From Squalus acanthias (Eukaryota): a DNA stretch of 64,000 nucleotides. The DNA is taken from the NCBI GenBank assembly GCA_030390025.1, contig CM059426.1, positions 183,644,001 through 183,708,000 of the forward strand. Direction: 5' to 3'. Position 1 is the first letter of the stretch. Every line of letters begins with the position of its first letter. Of this stretch, positions 4,967-48,131 are shown in pieces. The notes beneath the pieces were generated by a model, which was not told where the DNA came from, made no database searches, and worked only from the letters and a program-made list of their open reading frames with translations. The position numbers and the translations under genes were made by a program.

Positions 4967-5497
4967 CTGAAAAACAAATCAGAACACTTCAAAAACTGTT
5001 CCCCACACCAGCGCCATTAGGCATGCAAAAAAGTGATCAGTGCAAATCAACAGTCTGCAGTTAGCTGCCTTGGGTGGAAACTGATTTTACGGAGGTAATT
5101 TAGCAACCCCAACTTTTCTTTTGGGCAGATTCATAATCTATGGATTAGAATACTTAGCTGTACTTTTGTAATTATTTCAAATAATTTCAAGGGAATGACA
5201 TTGAGGGCATGCCTTCAGTGCTGGCCTGCTGATCTCACCTGCTTCTAATTTAACGATTTACAAAAGAAATGATGGGGCTGCTACAAGTACACAAACTAAA
5301 TAATCACTTCAACCAGCAGACAAGAGAAAGTAAATCCATTGGAATGCAAACATGCAGACAAGAAATTTTACATTTAAACTTCAAATAAAATTCCAGTGCT
5401 TCAACATAACGAGAAATTGTCACCCAGAGGTAAACCAGATTGAGATTCTACCTTCCATAAACCTCAGCTCATCCAAAACTCAGCTACCCATATCCTA

Positions 5498-6249
5498 AAT
5501 AACAGAAAACGCTGGAAAAACTCAGCAGGCGAGGCAGCATCCGTGGAGAGAGAAACAGAGTTAACGTTTCAGGTCGAAGACCTTTCATCAGAACTGGAGA
5601 CAGCAGGAAATCAAATAGATTTAAAGCGAGGATGAAGCTGGGAAAAGGGGGAGGGGATAAAAGAACAAAAGGAGACATTAAGAGATATCAAGGCAAGAGG
5701 TGGTATTAATGTGACAGGTTAAGGCTGAAAGAAGTGTGAAATCCACTGGCAGAATGAAGGACAGCTGCCAGCTTCTAGGAGGGAAAAAAAAAGGGGGGAT
5801 GAGAAAATAAAATATAAATGTGATGGGGCTAAGGTTATGATCTAAAATTGTTGAACTCGATATTGAGTCCAGAGGGCTGTAGCGTGCCTAAACGAAAGAT
5901 GAGGTGCTGTTCCTCAAGCTTACGCTGCGCTTCCGTGGAACAGTGTAATAGGCCAAGGACGGTGAGGTCAGAGTGGGAGTAAAGCGGTGAATTAAAGTGA
6001 CAGGCGACCAGGAGCTCGGGGTCCCCCTTACGGACTGAACGGAGGTGTTCCGCAAAGCAGTCACCCAATCTGCGTTTGGTCTCCCCAATGTAGAGGAGAC
6101 CACGTCGTGAGCAGCGAATACAGTATACTAAATTGCAGGAAGTACAAGTAAATCGCTGTTTCACCTGGAATGCTGCCTCGCCTGCTGAGTTTTTCCAGCG
6201 TTTTCTGTTGTTATTTCGGATTTCCAGCATCTGCAGTATTTTGCTATCA
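5498..6249 (-). mobile_element. Penelope-like retroelement fragment with GIY-YIG endonuclease end, inverted tail and 13-bp TSD
   Basis: ORF 5835-6170 encodes FTCTSCNLVYCIRCSRRGLLYIGETKRRLGDCFAEH...LEEQHLIFRLGTLQPSGLNIEF. Segment ~5500-5541 is inverted relative to ~6170-6213. Direct repeat TACCCATATCCTA lies at 5485-5497 and 6250-6262. Confidence 0.92.
5559..5595 (-). ncRNA. Minimal type I hammerhead ribozyme motif (PLE family A)
   Basis: AGUU-CUGAUGA-A-AGGUC(UUC)GACCU-GAAA-CG-UU-AACU: conserved core, stem I AGUU/AACU, stem II, and palindromic stem III AACGUU. Confidence 0.75.
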
Positions 6250-6994
6250 TACCCATATCCTATCCTGCACCAAGTCCCACTCACCCATCACCCCTATCTT
6301 CACCAATTTATTTTGAATCCTGCTCCCCCAATGCCTCAAATTTAAAATTCTCCTCCTGGTGTTTAAATCCCTCTATGGCTTCACTCCCCCATCTCCTTCA
6401 GTGGTACAAACCGCCCCCCCCCCGCCCCCCCGCAGACTCCGGCCTCTTGTGCATTTCCCCCCCCCCCCTTTTGCAGCACTGGCAGATGTGCCCTAAGCCT
6501 TCTAGGTCCTATGCTCTGAAATTCCCTCCCTAAACCACTCCGCCTCTCCACCTCCCTCTCCTCCTTTAATACCCTCCTTAAAACAAACCCCTCTGACCAA
6601 GCTTTTGGTCACCCCTCCTAATATCTCAGTCTTTGGCTTGAAGTCCATTTTTCCTTACACCTCTGTGAAGTGCCTTGGTATGTTTTTCTCTGTTAAAGGC
6701 ACTAAATAAATGTAAGTTGTTAAAAAAACAATCTACTTTAAGTCACTAAACTCGATACACATGCACCACTGATTTCACTTTTTTGTCTCTTATTATTACT
6801 TGGATTTTCACAGGAAATGGATTAGAAAATTCAGTACAATCATTCCATTCTTTCGGATCTGCCTCTCTCTTTAGAACAAAGCTCTGTACTTCTGTGTGTT
6901 TGTATTGTTTGACATGGAGGAGCAATATTCATTGTAAAGGCCAGTTTTGTGTGTTCAATTATAAAAAGGACAAATAAGCCATAAAGACCACACA

Positions 6995-7695: not shown

Positions 7696-7925
7696 AAACA
7701 GAAAATGCTGGAAATACTCAGCAGGTCAGGCAGCATCTGTGGAGAGAGAAAAACAGAGTTAACGTTTCAGGCCGATGACCTTTCATCAGAACTCACGACG
7801 AAAGGTCATCGACCTGAAACGTTAACTCTGTTTCTCTCTCCACAGATGCTGCCTGACCTGCTGAGTACTTCCAGCATTTCTGTTTTTATTTCAAATTTCC
7901 TGCATCCGCAGTATTTTGCTTTTGT
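7696..7925. mobile_element. Palindromic PLE tail remnant (family A)
   Basis: Arms ~7696-7787 and ~7797-7885 are near-perfect inverted repeats of the tail seen at 5500-5595 and 6170-6249. Confidence 0.88.
7756..7794 (-). ncRNA. Minimal hammerhead ribozyme motif (PLE family A)
   Basis: GAGUU-CUGAUGA-A-AGGUC(AUC)GGCCU-GAAA-CG-UU-AACUC; 5-bp stem I and a G-U pair in stem II. Confidence 0.75.
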
Positions 7926-10154: not shown

Positions 10155-13047
10155 TGTTATGGGTCCTACCATCTCAGAGTCTCCTTTTCCGTACAAACAG
10201 CAGTCCTTGAACAATCCAAGTTCCAAACACCTTTTAATGCACATAACACAAAGCAAGACCACACAGTACATCTTTCACCTCTTCCAACTCCCTGCCTCTT
10301 TCAGGGACTATTTCTCTTGAAGCTTCCCTATAATGCTTAGCTGGCTGGGGAAAGCCTCCACCCACTCCAGGTGCTCCCACTCCCAGTGTAATTATCTTTA
10401 AAGGGAACGTTCTTAAAGGGGCCATACCCATCTTCTAGGATCATGGCCCTCATCCGTCTGTGGCTGACATACCGACCCTCAATCACCCCCTGCTACACAC
10501 TAACCCCACCCCAGCATAGAGCCATCTGGTCTAGCGGCCTGCACCGCGAGGCAGTATGCTCGGGAGAGGGTATTGGCGTTCCCATGAGCCACTCCCGCCC
10601 GGTGCTCCACCTCAAAACAATAGGGCTGGAGGAACAAAAAAACACTGGGTAAAACAGGTGTATTTTGCTTTGTTGGACCGCAACCATTTGAGGGGCGCAT
10701 GATCGGTTATTAGGAGAAACTACCACCCGAGTAGGTAGTACCTTTAAGATTTCTACGGCTCATTTAATTGATAGGCACTCCTTCTCTACCGTAGTGCACT
10801 ATTGTTCCCGAAGCAACAGGTTCCTGCTCAGGCTGTTCCTCTCCCTCAACTAGTTGAGAGTACAGCAGAGGCATTGGTTTGCAACACAAATCTTTTGCTA
10901 AAGTCTGGGATCCTGAGCACAGGATTAATACACAGCACTTTGCTCAGGTCCCTGAAAGCAGCCTCTGCCTCAGGGTTCCACCGGACCCGTTTTGGTGCCT
11001 TAGCTTTAGTCAGGTTGGTAAGAGGGGCGGTTTGGGTAGCAAATTCCTGAATAAATTGTCAGTACAACACCCAAAAGTCCTGACTTGCTTCTTACTCCCA
11101 GTCAGGCCAGGCTTTTAAAGCTTCTACTTTGTTAACCTGACGCATCACCACCCCGCCCCCCTACAGTGTATTCTACGTATTTGGTCTTGGACAACCCAAT
11201 GTGGCACTTTTCTGCATTTGCCGTGAACCCAAATATCCTTAGGCTGTCAAATACAGCGTCCATCGTGCGTATTTGTGAACCCCAGTCTGTACTATAGATG
11301 ATGACATCATCCAAGTGTGCTGCTGCATACTGGGTATGAGGCCTCAATACTTGGTCCATGAGTCTTTGGAAGGTGGCTGGGGCCCCACACAATCTAAATG
11401 ACATGACGGTGTACTGGTAGAGCCCCTCAGGAGCTGCAAAAGCAGTTTTCTCTTTCACAGACTCCCTTTGGTCATTTCTAAGGGGGTGAGATAATTGGCT
11501 TTCCCCAATCTCTCAAACAACTCATCCCCCCAGGGCATCGAGTAAACATTGAATTTGGATACCTCATTCAGTTTCCGAAAGTCATTACAGAACCGCCAGT
11601 TCCCGTCATGTTTCGGAACTAAAACAATGGGGCTACTCCATTCACTATGTGATTCTTCATTCACTCTTAGTCTCAACATCCTTTTAATCTCCTGGCTTAC
11701 CTCCTTCCGTTTGGCTTCTGGGATTCTGTAAGGTCTTACTTTTATGGTCACCTCGGGTGGCGTCACCAGGTCATGGCAGATCGCCTTCTTGGGTCGCGTT
11801 GTAAATACATCGTGGTTCTGGTGTACCACGTCCTGAGCCTGCCGATACTGATCCTCAGTCAGTTCACTAGAGACGTGAACTGATCTTTGTACCTTGAGGT
11901 CAGGGCTCCCTATTGGTTCCTCCATCACTGGAAGGGCCTCTCTCTCTCTCCATGGCTTTAGGAAGTTCATGTGGTAGATCTGCTCAGGCTTCCTTCTGTG
12001 AGGTTGCCTGATCTTATAGTTCACCGGGCCCACCGTCTCTATAACTACATAAGGTCCCTGTCACTGCACAAAGAGCTTGCTTTCAGGTGTAGAGACAATG
12101 ACCATAACGCGGTCGCCTGGTCGTAACCTCCTGACCGCAGCCTCATTATACTGGGCGCTCTGATTTTCCTGTGCCTTCTCTAAATGAGCTCTCACTATGG
12201 GTGTAACTGCTTCGATCGGCTCCCTCATCTTCACTATGTGTTCAACAATATTTTTGGAGGGACTATTTTGTACCCTCCCATTTCTCTTTAGCAATGTCAA
12301 GGATTCCACGAGGCTGTTGCCCATACAGCAGATCAAACGGAGAAAACTCTGTAGAGGACTGGGCCACCTCCCTAACTGCGAACATGAGATACGGCAGTAG
12401 GGTAAACCAGTTTTTCCATCCTTATCCCCAACTTTTTTTTTTAAGCATACTCTTGAGGGTTCCATTGAGGAATCTCTCCACAAGACCATCGGTTTGAGAA
12501 TGGTGCACTGAGATCCTTAGACTCTTGATGTGGAGCAGGTCTTTCAGCAGTTTGGACACAAAGGGAGTACCCTGGTCCGTTAAGATCTCCTTTGGGATCC
12601 CCAGCTTGGAGAACATCTTCACTAATTCACCCGCTAAGGTTTTAGACATTGTGTTCCTTAGTGGAATTGCCTCGGGATATCTCGTGGTATAGTCAACAAC
12701 TACTAAAATATACTGGTGTCCTTGTGCTGACCTCTCTAGCGGTCCCACTAGGTCCATAGCGATCCTTTCGAAGACCACCTCAATTACTGGGACAGGGACT
12801 AATAGAGTGCAATAGTGAGGCCTGGGTCCACACAGTATGTATTTCAGCTCTTTAACTCCTAACCTCTTTCAGGGACTACTTCTCTTGAGCCTCCCCTTTT
12901 ATGCTTAGCTGGCTGGTGAAAGTCTCCTCCCACTCCAGGTGCAATTATCTTTAAAAGGGAGGTTCTTAAAGGGGCCATACCCTTCCTCTGGGTTCAGGGC
13001 CCTCATCAGCCTGCAGCTGACATACCTCCCTCAATCACCCTGCTACA
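10155..13047 (-). mobile_element. Gmr1-like Gypsy LTR retrotransposon, decayed, gag/protease deleted
   Basis: LTR 10155-10497 (TG..CA) and partial second LTR ~12828-13047; ATAT on both flanks; purine-rich PPT-like GGGGTGGGGTTAGTG next to the 3' LTR. Integrase FERIAMDLVGPL..YILVVVDYTTRYPEAIPL..EILTDQGT (12422-12778) lies upstream of RT WSSPIVLVPK..RFCNDFRKLN..APATFQRLMD..HLDDVII (11132-11760). Confidence 0.92.
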
Positions 13048-17500: not shown

Positions 17501-19353
17501 TGTAACGATTTCATATTTACCCTCCTGTTATTAATTGGGTCCGGCTACCATTTGGAGGTCTCCTCTCGTATAATAATTTTACTAATTAACTGGGTGGTCT
17601 TGTATTTTTTTAGTCAGCTGGTAAGAATCTCTCTCCCTTAAAGGAAGCGGGTACTTTCCGCTGCCACCACCACCCCCCCTCCCAGTAATCCCAGTTAGTT
17701 AATTTATTCTTCATTGATTCTCAAATCCTTTTTATTTATCTCATACTTCAAAAATTGTCCTCTATTTTATACACACTTTTAGATAGCCAATCACACATGG
17801 CAACTTGGTTATTACAATACACAGAATTACAGACAATGTAATGGCACTCACAAGTGCATGACAATGAGTAGGTTTTCAGTTGTTGCTCTGCTCGCTCTCT
17901 CTATTACACTGGAGACTCTGACTTTGACCGAGGACCTGTGCTTCTTCCCTGGTTCCCTGTCTTTCAGTCTCCCTGTCTCTCGAGTCTCCTTCTCTGTCCC
18001 TGCTCCCTTTTATGCCTTGCTCTTCTAGCCAAATGTGACCTATGCTGCTCGCTGATTCACCCCACGCAACCTCTGCTGGCTTCTTCCGGATTCATTTTAA
18101 GTGGCTGCCGCACTTGACTGCGGAACTGCACCCACTACTTGACCCTGCCTTTTTGACAAATGATGGAGCGTTTCGCTACAGCCTTCTGTGTTCTCCCTCG
18201 CTCCTTCCCTAAATTTGCCTCCTCCCACCTCAGTTCCCACTTTTTCTTTATGAAGTGCTCCAAGGGGTTTCCTTTTATATAAGTACTAGTAGCAGTTATG
18301 GTAGTTTTGAAAGGGAGCTGTGTAACTGGTTGCATATGTCCTACTTCTAAGCGGTTACGTTTCTTGAAATTTGCAAATCTGGCTGGGATAAATCTGTTCA
18401 TTCCTGCATAGATATGGATTGCGATGAAAAACAGGATAGTACTGTTGTGAGCAAGTTTTCATCTGGAGAACATTTCCACTGATAAGTTTGTGCAATTCAG
18501 ATGAAAGAATTGCTGTTTTTTTGCATTGCCAGACAGACAGAAGTAGACCAAAACACTTTTAAAAGCTTTAGTTTCCATGATAATGTGATTCAAATAAATA
18601 GTCCAATAGTGGCCTTTTCATTTTAAAAAAGTATATAGGTTTAAAGTTTAATGAGGAATAGAGGGTTAAAGACTGAGCAAAGGAAGACAGGTAACCAACA
18701 CAGAGGAATAGATTTTGGGAAAGAGACAGAGCTTGGGAGTAATAGCGTGAAAGATTCAAAAACCGAACAGAGGCAGAGTGAGGATAGTTTCACTTCCTAG
18801 TTTCCTAATCCATTGACCAAGAAAACACCATCCTCATACTTTCAACTTTGTCACATTGGATACTTTGCCACATTTTAAGTAAGTTAACTTGGCAACAAAT
18901 TAAGTTCATTAATGCGACAGGGCACAAGTAAAAAAAGTCAACTATCTGCCCATCTTTTTTTCAGCATCTCTATAATATTAAATATTTCCTAAAAAATTAA
19001 GAATGATGCAAGTGATAAGCATCAAAGAAACAGTCATGATATCATTGTTCAAAATTTAATTCAGGAACTTCCCCAGCTCATATGCCTACGTAAACACTGA
19101 AAATTCAATAGCCAACCTCAAAATATGAGGCGCTTTTTATAAAAATATATATATATTTTTTAAATCACTACAAATCAAGACAGTCTATAACCATTTACAG
19201 AGAGTAAAATTTACATTCCTATTTAGAATAATACTCCAAATTATACAAATGGTTACGTCACGTCCCGATTTTAACAAACTCTTCAGATTAAGCACTGTAG
19301 CACTAATGCACTTTATAAACAGTACTGTAACACTTTCCAAACACTCATCTTAC

Positions 19354-19576
19354 CTGGCAGGCTCAGGCTTTTTGCTTTCACAGTTGGCTAACCACAGATA
19401 ATCCTGTGGATCTTCCTGGCTGGATAACGACTCCGGATGTCGCACACTGATCGGCTGATAGGGGGGAGGTAGCGAACCCATGGAAATTGTTGGCCGTACA
19501 GAAGGCTGTGTAGTACTGACAGAAAGAGGTACCTCAGTAACGGCATGGCCAGAGGGATTGGATGGCTTAACAGCAT
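19354..19576 (-). CDS. GAB1: GAB1 coding exon 3
   Basis: Acceptor ttgtag| and donor |gtaag; 223 nt, phase 1 to 2. Reads DAVKPSNPSGHAVTEVPLSVSTTQPSVRPTISMGSLPPPYQPISVRHPESLSSQEDPQDYLWLANCESKKPEPA(R), matching the GAB1 LPPPYQ...QEDPQDYL...KKPEP motifs. The ORF track shows it only in the wrong frame. Confidence 0.95.
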
Positions 19577-21728
19577 CTACAATGGGACAAAAAGAGCCAG
19601 TGATCAGCAGCTAGATCAATAAAAGTATTTAGGAAAAAATGGACACTTAACAACGATGTTCAACTTTTAACGGCACAAACTGGGAACAGGGCAGGTGTCA
19701 GGTCAATATTTGTAAATTAACAGAATTAGTCATTCTACATTTTATTTGAAAGTTAAATTCTAATTGTGCCAGTGCGTTCAGCAAACGTTCCAATCTTCTG
19801 AAAACTTCAAAATGCATCCTGAGAGAATAATTAAACCAGATGCATTGGGCAGACTGCAGAACAATCTTGCCGTATTTCACAAACTTTCATAGACTTTTCT
19901 CTGGAGCTCATAATGGGTTAAAGACTCCAGAAATTTTTTTGTTCCAACTGTAAACTACTTCCCCGTGTGCTTTGACAAACAGATTTTGTGGCTGGAGAAA
20001 CGTAGGCATTGTAGTAGTTCTGAGACTTTTTTATCCTCTTTCTCTGATGTGTCTTAATTAGGAACCCAGCAACACCTCTGAACTGTACTCTCTCAAACTG
20101 GAATGAGATACTGGACTAAATCATTTGGGGGAGGTCCTCTTGGAAGACAAGATAATATTCTGAACATTAACAAAGCTGATTCAGCACTGAAACATTTCAG
20201 GCTCTCAAAGTCCTTCCCCCCGACCCCCACCAGAAAACACCTTTTTTGTTAAACAGCTTGTCAACAAATTTCCATATCAAACCAAACCTTTTATGAACCA
20301 AAACATGTGTCTTTATTCTCAGGCAGATATGAGTTAGTGTAGCCAGAGTCTAATAATTAACCTGGCAAATGGCTTAATGGTGAACAAATCAGATGCTCAT
20401 GACATTCTTCAATCACTTTAGATGAGGAAAATGCCATATCACAAGACTACCTCAAATAGACAAAAGCTACTGCCCGGTGGTATTTATAGATAAAATACAC
20501 AGAGGCAGAAAGATACAAGCACAATTTACACTCCCAAATTCTTAAAACTTCTCTCAATGAACTCTTAGAGAGACAGTCTCTGGTGGTACACATGCAAAAT
20601 TCTTGCTTATGGAATTCGCTCACCCTCGTCACATGAGGAAACAAACAGAAGAATGACGACAATGCCTGACATCCCTACATTGATGAATGAAATAGCTTCT
20701 TTGTAGATTGTCTTGAATAAACAGAAAATGAATAAGCTAAAAGCCCAGTAAACAGGCTAATGGCTTAGGAATTGGGTCGCTTCTCAAGCCGTGTATACTT
20801 TTAAATTAGACGGTTTTTAACACCAGATAACAATTGGAAATTGTATTTTTAGATGTCACCAAGATGAATGTTCATTCTGCAATGAAATAGCCCCGTGAAG
20901 GATTCAGAAGATACACATGGATCAGGAAAGTTATTCATTTCATATTATTTCATGCATCCAGAATGACCTGACACATCTCAGCTCCCCACCATCACCACCC
21001 CCACTATTGTAGCACTAATTGTTTCTTAAATGATACTAGGGTTTTTGCCTCCTCAGTTTGCCATTCCAAGTGTTGAGCACTCTAAGGACAAAATTTGTGT
21101 CATCAATCCTAAAATTACCTTCTGCTAGTTTGAACCTGTGTCCCCTTGTCCTACTCGCAGTTTGATTTAATGTGGTATTCTTGATTAATGTTTCTGTACT
21201 GTTAACTTATTTACTTCTGTAGGAGTACCTCTTAGACACCCCTTTTCAAGGCTGAAAAGCCCAAGTCACTCAAGTCTTTCCTCACAACTCAGACCTTTGA
21301 CACTAGGGATTAGCCCCATAGCTCTTTTCCGCACTGCCTCCAGCGCTTGAAAGTCGCCCTTTTTCCTTCGTGACTAGAACCTGACAGTACTCAAGGTGTG
21401 GTCTGACCAGAGCTTCCGCTGACTTGTATTCTACTGTTTTGGCTATGTAGTTAACATTCTTCTGGCTTTGTTGATTGTTTCTCTGCATTGACTGGACATG
21501 TTGAGCATTGAGTCTACCAAGAGTCCTAGGTCCCTTTTAGTTTCATCCTTAGCTATTTTAATACGATTCATGGAGTATTTCGGCCATTTTGCCTTCCTAT
21601 GTGCAAAAGTTTACATTTGTCTGCACTAAATTTCATCTGACATAGTCTGGCCTACTCACAAATTTTTGTTTAACTCATTCTGTAATTTCTGGGCTTTCTC
21701 CTTTGATTCCACTGCTTCCTCCTAGTTT

Positions 21729-21942
21729 CCATGTTGCGGAGGTGCCGGTGTTGGACTGGGGTGGACAAAAGTGAGAAGTCGCACAACACCAGGTTATAGT
21801 CCAACAGCTTTATTTGAAATCACAAGCTTTCGGAGCGCTGCTCCTTCGTCAGGTGACGAAGGAGCAGCGCTCCGAAAGCTTGTGATTTCAAATAAAGCTG
21901 TTGGACTATAACCTGGTGTTGTGCGACTTCTCACTTTTGTCC
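21729..21942. mobile_element. Perfect palindromic PLE-tail insertion (family B) with 12-bp TSD
   Basis: 21763-21851 and 21854-21942 are exact reverse complements (89-bp arms, 2-nt spacer). TCCTCCTAGTTT is duplicated at 21717-21728 and 21940-21951. PLE origin is inferred from the architecture and the hammerhead motif. Confidence 0.88.
21819..21857 (-). ncRNA. Minimal type I hammerhead ribozyme motif (PLE family B)
   Basis: GUCAC-CUGACGA-A-GGAGC(AGC)GCUCC-GAAA-GC-UU-GUGAU: stem I GUCAC/GUGAU, stem II GGAGC/GCUCC and palindromic AAGCUU stem III. Confidence 0.78.
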
Positions 21943-22623
21943 TCCTAGTTTGGCATCATCTGCAAATTTACAATTAATTGAGTTTCTAAATCCAAAGATA
22001 TCGATGTAACTTAGAAATAGTAGTCGTCCCAACACTGAGCCCGAGGCACCCACTCAGGCCGTCCTCCCACTCCGACATTACCACCCTTCAGTGAGCGGTT
22101 TACCTATTCCCAATTTTAATCCTTAACCCCCCTCCCCGCTTTGAGCTTAGCTAGCCACTCATGTGGAACTATCAAATGCCTTTTGGAAGTCGAAGTACAT
22201 AACTTTGTAGGATTAACCACAGTTCACTTGGGTATCACTTCCTCAACAGAATTCAAGGAAGTTGGTTGGGCAGGTTCTTCCTCATCTAAAGCCATGTTGA
22301 CTGCTGTTTACTAATGTTTTATCACCTTTTTTTGAATATGGACACCATGTTAGCCTGTTTCCAATCTAGTGCTACCGTCTCGGTGTCCACTGACTCCATC
22401 ATAATGATTGGCAGTGTCTCACAGATCTCACTAGTCTCAATCAATACACTGGGACCATCTAATCCTGGGGTTTCAGCTTGCCTAGGACTTCAACCTGATT
22501 TATATCCAAGTCCTGAATTATGCCTTTGCACAGGTAACTATACCTTTATTTCACTTTTAATTTGTTAATCTATTTAGGATCATGCTGGTTTAGTCTGAGC
22601 TTGCTGATCCTGTGGGGGGGGGG

Positions 22624-24025
22624 GGGGGGAATTTTAACGTGGCGAGTACGTTGGGTGTGAGGCGGGTAAAGTCAGGGAAAAATGCAAGGTTGATAGGAAG
22701 CCGACTCCAACCCACTGACTTTCGTATTTAACTCCAGTGCATTCGGCTGCATGCGCGCAACCCCCTCGGGAGAGGCGGGTTGTCAATTTCAATATGTTAA
22801 TCGCCCAATTACAGCAATATTAACATGGCTTTTGCAATTTAACTGCGGGTCCACGGGTTTTCCGGGCTTCCTGGAACTCGCTAGTGAAAGCAAGGTGAGA
22901 ACACAGCGGCAATTGAGGGCGCTGAAGACATGATAGGGAAATATGCCAATAAGTACCGACACCCCTCAGCTGCTTTCTTGCCTGCTTGTGTGAAAGGCTT
23001 TGTGCACGGTACTTGTGCTGTGAAGTTACTTTTACAACTTTGGAGGTTTGTACGTCTGATCTGCACTTTGGAGCTCTGATCTACCAGATCAGCATGGGTG
23101 CTGCTTAGGTTGTTACTTTGGAGCTCAGATGAGGACCCAGATGACCAGTACCAGGAGCAGCAGCCTGCTGCTCAGAGACGAGAGGTGCAGCTCACAGGAG
23201 GCCATACCCAGCACACACTGTCTACAGGCAGAGGATAAGCTTCCTCGACATGTCGGAACACCAGCGTCTCAGGGTGTTGCGTCAGGTGGTCGCTGACATT
23301 TGCAGCCTGCTGGAACAAGACCTGCTGCCAACTGGACCTGGTGGCCACGCTTTACGAGGGGGCTGTCAAAGTCACCAGCGTCCTCAACATTTTTGCCTTT
23401 GGAACCTTCCAGGGCACTGCCAGAGACATTTGCAGGATCTTGCAGTCGGCGGCCCACAAATACATAAGACAGGTGACTGATGGCTTCTTTGTCAGGGCTG
23501 GCAATTATGTACACTTTTTCTGCAATAACGCCAGTCAGAATGAGCAGGCGTTCGGGTTTGCGGCTCTGGCTGGCTTCCCAAAGGTACAGGGCGTCATCGA
23601 CTGCACGCATGTGGCATTTAAGGCACTTCCAGATGACCCAGGAGGATTCATCAACCACAAGGGCTTCCACTCCATCAATGTGCAGCTGATGTCCAACCAC
23701 AAAGATGTTTTTGCAGGTGTGCGCAAGATTCCCGGGCAGCTGCCATGATGCTTTCGTCCTGCGGCAGTCCACCCTCCCTGATCTTTTCACACCTCGAAGC
23801 AGACTTACCGGATGGCTGCTCAGAGACAAGGGATACTCACTTAAAACATGGCTGATGACACCCATGAGGAACCTAACCAATGAGGCCCAGGAGCGATACA
23901 ATGAAAGCCAAATGACAACCAGATGTGTCATTGAGCAAGCCACTGGCATGCTGAAGATGCATTTCACACACCAACCACCCCCCCCTCCCCGCTCCATAGC
24001 ATATTGCAATGTTAAAATCAGTCCC
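22624..24025 (+). mobile_element. PIF/Harbinger DNA transposon with frameshifted HARBI1-like transposase
   Basis: AGFPKVQGVIDCTHVA..FINHKGFHSINVQL (23341-23748) and [50 protein letters not shown] (23705-23970). Imperfect TIRs GGGGGGAATTTTAAC (22624-22638) and GTTAAAATCAGTCCC (24011-24025). Confidence 0.88.
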
Positions 24026-24075
24026 ATGTATGTATTTGTCCTGCATGCCCAGCATGATTATTTAATAAGTGTCCC

Positions 24076-24390
24076 ATTTGTCTTTTCTTCTTAGGCAGTC
24101 CCTCGGAACCGAGGATGACTTGCTTCCACATTAAAAATGAGTTCTCAGGTGACTGATGAGTCCAATGCGGGACCTACAGTCTCTGTCACAGGTGGGGCAG
24201 ACGGTGGTTGAAGGGGCAGGTGAGTGGGGTGCTTGGGTTGACGTGCGCTCCTTGCGCTGCCTGCGCTTGCTCCCGGCGAAGAGACTCGAGGTGTTCGGCA
24301 CCTTCCCTGATGCTGCTCCTCCACTTTGTGCGGTCTTGGGCCAGGGATTCCCAGGTGTCGGTGGGGATGTTGCACTTTTTCAAGGAGGCA
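24076..24390 (-). mobile_element. RTE-clade LINE 3' end
   Basis: LKKCNIPTDTWESLAQDRTKWRSSIREG followed by CPTCDRDCRSRIGLISHLRTH (C2H2 finger); tail GGGACTGCCTAAGAAGAA. Confidence 0.85.
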
Positions 24391-47836: not shown

Positions 47837-48131
47837 CTTCATCAGTAGGATTGAACCCACAGATATCACAGATGCATCGAACCCACTTATTCATTTCTTC
47901 TTCAGTGTCTGCTACCAGGTAGAAGATACGGTCAATTGTTTTGATATCAAAAATGTAACTGTTCTCAAGATCCTTCTTATTAAAGGTTAGCCCAGCATCC
48001 ACTTGCGCACAAAGATTCAAGTCAATGACACGGATCGGTTTCTTTGCATGATCATTTTTGTAGTATTCCAACACATCCGGATCTCCTGTCAGACGGCCAC
48101 TTCGAAGTACAAACCAGCGCTTCTTCCATGC
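47837..48131 (-). CDS. GAB1: GAB1 coding exon (equivalent to human exon 2), PH domain
   Basis: Encodes [98 protein letters not shown], the GAB1 PH domain. Acceptor ttttcag| at 48132 and donor |gtaagt at 47836; 295 nt, ends in phase 1. Confidence 0.97.

Follow-up and report, generated by a model that had tools for sequence, protein, structure and literature searches.

The window analyzed here is a stretch of 64,000 nucleotides from the Squalus acanthias genome that contains part of GAB1 on the minus strand. The gene was recognized from its best protein matches, which reach 95% to shark GAB1; searches of the PDB did not identify it. The PH-domain exon (residues 25-122 of P0001) lies upstream of the insert described below, at approximately 47838..48131 (-), and an exon encoding residues 123-197 lies downstream of it, at approximately 19353..19577 (-), with 2.1 kb separating the insert from the downstream acceptor. 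An earlier sequence-only reading had placed the insert in GAB1 intron 2. The gene, the strand, and the intronic position stand, while the number 2 depends on the assumption that residues 1-24, which were not found in the window, form a single exon.

The insert is built around an exact inverted repeat with 89-nt arms (21763-21851 and 21854-21942) and a GG loop (21852..21853), just as first reported. At 99% identity the arms reach 92 nt, and the runner-up exact inverted repeat in the 64-kb window has arms of only 12 nt (loops of up to 20 nt considered). The 12-bp direct repeat TCCTCCTAGTTT flanks the insert at 21717..21728 and 21940..21951, and because the terminal 3 nt of the right arm (21940-21942) double as the first 3 nt of this repeat, 86 nt per arm are element-only. 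The left arm (-) is the longer one, a pseudo-LTR or leader copy continuous with a one-sided tail of 34 nt (21729..21762, -), and the right arm (+) is an inverted leader copy that ends at a short site. The target was an old LINE reverse transcriptase fragment (approximately 21480..22050, -), which we take to be CR1-like, that reads FADDAKLGG across the empty site and has paralogues 75-80% identical to it. In two of seven such paralogues the flanks are contiguous around a single 12-mer; the others have projected gaps of 3 and -7 (two copies), an interruption (one), or no match to the right flank (two). Because the flanks are joined through one 12-mer in paralogous copies, the 12-bp repeat is a true target-site duplication (TSD), in agreement with the earlier claim.

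On the GAB1 sense strand, the palindrome carries a minimal type I hammerhead motif (21820..21856, -) that matches the features listed in PMC4209133. Stem I has 4 bp (21856-21853 with 21823-21820) and is followed by the core CUGACGA (21852-21846), a bulged A at 21845, a 5-bp stem II with an AGC loop (21844-21832), and GAA, a palindromic AGCU (21828-21825), and U; the predicted cut falls between 21824 and 21823 (-), at an NUH site. The stems, the CUGACGA core (CUGANGA in its general form), and the GAAA box that had been claimed were all found. The palindrome AAGCUU that had been called stem III is present as well, but stem III proper is AGCU (A15.1-U16.1), and the longer string takes in A14 and U17 of the core. 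In common with metazoan minimal hammerheads of Penelope-like elements (PLEs), as described in PMC4209133, the motif has a stem I of 4-5 bp, an unpaired base between positions 9 and 10.1, a G10.1-C11.1 pair, palindromic positions 15.2-16.2, and no stem III as a monomer, whereas its stem II of 5 bp is shorter than the 7-8 bp of Schistosoma. Pairs of such motifs on opposite strands, 100-700 bp apart, were already described in the same source. The mirror copy of the motif in the GAB1 insert (21849..21885, +) is predicted to be inactive, because C3 is replaced by G (21853) and stem I has lost a pair. In the anole PLE hammerhead, the change C3G abolishes cleavage (PMC11167929).

A covariance scan of 21400-22300 with Rfam returned no hammerhead family at E<=1; its 11 matches were all miRNA hairpins or an lncRNA and fell below the gathering score. 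Folding prediction for a hammerhead dimer gave a minimum free energy structure other than the active fold. A second PLE family in the genome has an identical layout with a different stem I (AGTT/AACT), stem II (AGGTC/GACCT), and palindrome (ACGT), and loop II varies within the family of the GAB1 insert. In this comparison of two families, the hammerhead stems are kept despite sequence change.

The long arm with its 34-nt extension has at least 40 genomic copies, the best 40 of which are 96-100% identical to it. Exact matches to the intact 35-nt hammerhead number 14,797; 594 loci have the same centre as the GAB1 insert, and 463 have a second fixed centre (reversed-pattern controls gave 0 in each case). 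Two copies continue upstream into reverse transcriptase (RT) and GIY-YIG coding sequence. The fullest account of the parent comes from locus L031, a tandem pLTR-ORF-pLTR element with a 3116-bp unit, a direct repeat of 1039 bp at 98%, and pseudo-LTRs that bear the hammerhead. Its ORF, which carries one stop and one frameshift, matches RVT_1 (E=7e-9) and, weakly and below the Pfam cut-off, GIY-YIG (E=0.0013). An RT with a C-terminal GIY-YIG domain (motif VYLIRC...WYIG) is continuous with the repeat in L031, L005, and L027. The linker before GIY-YIG in L031 reads CHGNLCKTC (CX4CX2C), and since a zinc-finger-like CX2-5CxxC linker marks Neptune and Nematis PLEs (PMC8557442), the parent appears, from this linker, to be Neptune-like.

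The ATG of the L031 ORF (2649) corresponds to the ATG at the tail end of the GAB1 insert (21732-21730). Family match, full element, and ORF start at the tail end together identify the insert, at the level of sequence, as the PLE leader (pLTR) twice, head to head, plus a tail. Both the PLE origin with its RT/GIY-YIG link and the inverted-tail layout that had been proposed are thus borne out: the genome search with the arm led to L031, and the insert and its siblings have an inverted 5'-truncated copy, a one-sided tail of 30-40 bp, and a TSD. Such a layout of inverted pLTR and tail is already described for PLEs (PMC3846280, PMC8557442), and the GAB1 locus is an ordinary footprint of a known class, at most a new shark member of it. 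None of the papers listed in a literature search concerned shark PLE palindromes or PLE twin priming; the family may already be catalogued. At L031:1-5774, an inverted 1.6-kb piece of the element's own ORF precedes the tandem element at 97.8%, a head-to-head layout at the kilobase scale. At L014:727-1206 (oriented, -), a PLE copy adjoins an ORF piece that we presume, from its motif, to resemble an exon of a proteasome beta-type subunit.

Sibling loci follow strict pairing rules. Samples were the first 30-40 loci on one contig, with an intact motif required, and the three pairing sets (30 same-centre loci, 30 second-centre loci, and 40 hammerhead copies in order along contig C1) have five loci in common. 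An inverted partner was found in the 1.5 kb upstream of 29 of the best 40 copies, although in one case it is no more than a 26-nt piece. In the GAB1-centre class, 28 of 30 loci pair one arm that reaches element position 122-129 with a shorter one, which ends at 86-95 in 26 loci and at 44 and 50 in two; partial tails occur at two of the 30 loci and two tails at none. The second centre class likewise has a long and a short arm in 28/30, and along C1 a partner lies within 500 nt in 28 of 40 copies, with long and short arms in 27 of these 28. Pairs with two long arms were never seen in the three sets. The TSD measures 11-15 bp in 25/30 loci, with a mode of 12 and 70% AT. At the other end of the arms, the start of 24 of the 40 C1 copies falls 4-10 nt before C3, immediately 5' to stem I, at a TCACTTCAC motif, and full copies have TATATAT upstream of it.

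The two arms of a locus also tend to share a subfamily marker. At position 50, a non-CpG subfamily site that serves as a 50:50 marker, arms agree in 57/59 pairs where 28 would be expected (p=5e-16). Agreement at CpG sites is that of independent decay (45 vs 45.4 and 49 vs 49.3), so gene conversion between arms is ruled out as the source of the agreement at position 50. A few centres depart from the common forms. Three separate loci (L120, L122, and L123) have an identical non-standard junction, with the short arm extending 14 nt and the long arm 80 nt upstream of C3, and these may be a case in which an existing palindrome was itself copied or duplicated whole. The centres of L018, L117, and L128 hold duplicated or rearranged hammerhead pieces, which suggests repeated template switching at the join.

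The 211-bp insert consists of two head-to-head leader copies, and we consider it likely that their reverse transcription was primed from both ends of one staggered cut. The components observed are the family identity, a full parent with RT and GIY-YIG, the TSD, a long and a short arm, and 5' ends clustered before stem I. In this scheme, the RNA would start at the Inr-like TCACTTCAC, downstream of the TATATAT box and just 5' of stem I; we take these two to be promoter motifs of the Inr and TATA types. The endonuclease would cut with a stagger of about 12 nt. One target end would prime at a far internal site (element position about 122-135, beside the ORF ATG) and the other at a near site (about 86-95), and the 34 nt between the sites would become the tail. 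Both cDNAs would run to the 5' end of the RNA through an uncut hammerhead and be joined by microhomology at the TCA/TGA micro-palindrome of stem I and core, leaving one intact and one C3-less hammerhead. Which arm retains the intact hammerhead would, on two-sided priming, be an accident, as the 9 vs 19 split among siblings suggests. In the shark family, 109-116 nt separate the far site from the beginning of stem II. For the anole PLE the corresponding distance is 111-118 nt, and that element was shown to cut both strands, to extend both, and to work from uncut RNA (Frangieh et al., PMC11167929). The anole element also has two internal start sites that bracket the tail (PMC11167929), and PLE tails of 30-40 bp are described in PMC8557442, PMC3846280, and PMC11167929.

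Several observations weigh against two-sided priming. The transcription start is placed solely by copy ends and promoter-like motifs. The anole start sites are alike on both strands in vitro, so strict long/short pairing is not a given (PMC11167929). Fold-back would predict the 24-to-4 skew of the second centre class, later deletions could strip 5' sequence from the long arm and mimic independent priming, and agreement at position 50 could also arise from two RNAs of one master copy.

As a template, RNA cleaved by the hammerhead was considered and rejected, since stops at the cut site are no more frequent than stem I microhomology accounts for. Counted by eye among the first 100 of 343 matches, 34 stops fall at the cut site, 32 of them via the 4-nt TCAC microhomology from stem I and two without it; microhomology-free stops 3 nt upstream number 11, against these two. 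Nearby 3-nt microhomologies give 15 and eight stops, and a control window gave 145 matches.

A stronger version of two-sided priming, which we put forward tentatively and with some reservation, is a concerted asymmetric insertion, of which the thousands of shark stumps would be an in vivo record and in which one PLE complex would cut both strands, allot the far start to one end of the target and the near start to its opposite end, copy the uncut leader of the same source twice, and join the copies head to head. If this were true, one mechanism would account for tail, inverted pLTR, and junction palindrome, and the hammerhead would not be the processing step that defines inserted copies.

The rival that survives best, although we regard it as unlikely, is fold-back: a single tail-primed cDNA would snap back at TCA-GG-TGA and copy itself, much like the self-priming proposed in PMC3846280. 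Centres in both classes are palindromes with 2-nt loops, the arms share their subfamily marker in 57/59 pairs, and the tail sits on the predicted arm, the one keeping more 5' sequence, at the GAB1 locus and in 24/28 loci of the second class. In the GAB1-centre class, however, just 9/28 loci carry the tail on the arm so predicted, and 19/28 carry it on the opposite arm. Moreover, 10 nt or more of 5' sequence in the short arm is missing from the long arm in 8/28 pairs, so the short arm there is not a fold-back copy of the long one, and arms ending at the short site can extend 168-450 nt upstream of C3. Fold-back also leaves the fixed short end at 86-95 unaccounted for.

We regard it as very improbable that transcription and re-insertion moved the palindrome as a unit, in the manner of a non-autonomous mini-PLE or retrozyme. 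The 594 loci with the same centre would fit such an element, and animal retrozymes are non-autonomous PLE derivatives according to 10.64898/2026.07.22.740005; the same source defines them as tandem repeats, not palindromes. Yet among the 30 same-centre loci the tail occurs on either arm (9 vs 19), the ends vary, and both position-50 subfamilies are represented; many other centres exist in the genome, and the join falls where the Inr-like motif is cut off. Tail side, ends, and centre types all vary, unlike those of a unit copied in fixed form. With centres that differ among siblings and arms that begin in the leader of the element itself, the palindromes seem to be made anew at every insertion, and the ORF-less mini-PLE first proposed is not upheld.

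In GAB1 pre-mRNA, the predicted fold of the insert is an 88-bp hairpin (-185.6 kcal/mol for the whole insert), and the predicted probability of a stem II pair is 4e-19 in the whole insert vs 0.58 in one arm. Since transcription reaches the antisense arm first, hairpin nucleation is predicted to precede completion of the hammerhead; the transcription-order argument made earlier agrees with this fold prediction. The hairpin is therefore predicted to hide the ribozyme, and it would plausibly be an ADAR/Dicer substrate. It would also enclose an AATAAA followed by GT-rich sequence (21809..21814, -, GAB1 sense), which may be a concealed cryptic poly(A) signal.

Selection could in principle keep the inverted arm because it silences the ribozyme and the cryptic poly(A) signal, a view that draws on the intact motif on the sense strand and on the antisense arm being made first, with a predicted hairpin that precedes the complete motif. 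We find this still harder to credit than a mini-element. Cleavage was absent from a single minimal hammerhead in PMC4209133, and the anole hammerhead depends on the element's protein (PMC11167929). An inverted partner lies within 500 nt of 28/40 hammerhead copies irrespective of genes, and a second-family hammerhead in the next GAB1 intron (5548-5600, sense strand) persists although its own inverted arm does not cover it (n=1). Because lone minimal hammerheads are reported to be inactive or protein-dependent and this uncovered copy persists, neutralization is likely a side effect of insert geometry, not a selected safety catch, and the claim that self-neutralization is a meaningful property of the insertion is not supported.

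That second-family insertion spans window positions 5485-6262, with a 13-bp TSD (5485-5497 / 6250-6262), a GIY-YIG fragment (5835-6287, -) 36% identical to the L031 endonuclease region, an intact-looking hammerhead, and an inverted arm at ~6170-6245 that excludes the hammerhead. A third PLE stump in GAB1, also of the second family (7697-7920), contains a palindrome (7696-7885, 90%) and a hammerhead motif (7746-7798, -), with an extension on one side only; the copy at a distance of 2.2 kb would be a possible pairing partner for it.

Long-read sequencing is known to produce spurious perfect palindromes, and the contigs examined do not span the whole GAB1 locus, but a fold-back chimeric read is scarcely conceivable here given that the one-sided tail and 12-bp TSD conform to the family rule, that arms of sibling loci decay independently, and that the same form of centre, with its joint from 21853 to 21824, is crossed by a contig of run X1 (possibly at another locus). 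When presence or absence of the insert was looked up, contigs of runs X1, X5, X6, X7, and X9 broke in repeats on either side of it, and loose contig ends in X7 and X9 resembled paralogous LINE copies.

The insertion had been called very recent, a claim that comparison with siblings does not support. Sibling arms differ at 105/4504 sites, and 10/60 pairs have no differences, as expected from a Poisson distribution (P0=0.17); perfect arms therefore do not show youth. The 0/86 differences at the GAB1 insert bound arm divergence only below 3.5%, or about 2.5e7 generations if the epaulette-shark mutation rate of 7e-10 (PMC10587355) applies. The insert is thus at most modestly young. By summed depth, which does not measure copy number, contigs of organism A mostly have A at 21770, whereas in organism C this letter accounts for under 1%; the difference suggests that the subfamily is lineage-specific. 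Among genomic copies there was no A-to-G excess of the kind left by editing: 56 of 60 A>G changes are at the position-50 subfamily site.

LINE-1 twin priming, in which cDNA synthesis starts from each end of the target cut to give an inversion joined by microhomology, copies non-overlapping parts of one RNA. The shark insert would resemble it in two-end priming and differ in that a single stretch of 86 nt is represented in each arm, with fixed internal sites as the starting points. A close structural counterpart is Pen2a_Av of Adineta vaga (PMC3846280; scheme in PMC8557442), which has the same head-to-head inverted pLTR, junction palindrome, one-sided 30-40-bp tail, and TSD, as well as TATA-like and Inr-like (TCACT) motifs in its pLTR (PMC3846280). 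Unlike Pen2a_Av as described there, the shark insert comprises the leader alone (211 bp) and has hundreds of loci per centre type, and where PMC3846280 proposes self-priming, the shark data favour two primed cDNAs. PAc, the Poseidon-type PLE of Anolis carolinensis (PMC11167929), resembles the shark family in several respects: its hammerhead lies where pLTR and ORF meet, the tail is flanked by two internal RT start sites, the far one is at a distance of about 110-118 nt from stem II, and cleavage is not needed. In contrast to PAc, the shark family has a CX2-5CxxC linker of the Neptune/Nematis type, an ORF that starts at the tail end and not at stem II, and genomic pairs that are strictly long plus short, whereas PAc is described as showing no strand difference in vitro.

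The GAB1 locus itself is ordinary: one among 594 same-centred stumps, intronic, with no exon closer than 2 kb. Its family, by contrast, documents PLE insertion in nature on a large scale, and the literature has called the mechanism of that insertion unresolved. The strict long/short pairing, common subfamily markers, and sharp 5'-end clusters of the family supply predictions that could be tested in the in vitro system of PMC11167929. Near-perfect hairpins of ~85 bp, in their thousands, would also, if transcribed, be a sizeable source of intronic double-stranded RNA.

Other repeats share the window with the insert. Broken pol pieces at 11132-12868 (-), RT and integrase-like, presumably derive from an LTR-retrotransposon-like element, judging by their motifs. 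Transposase fragments at 23239-24094 (+), 1.3 kb from the palindrome, carry motifs that we take to be Harbinger/HARBI1-like.
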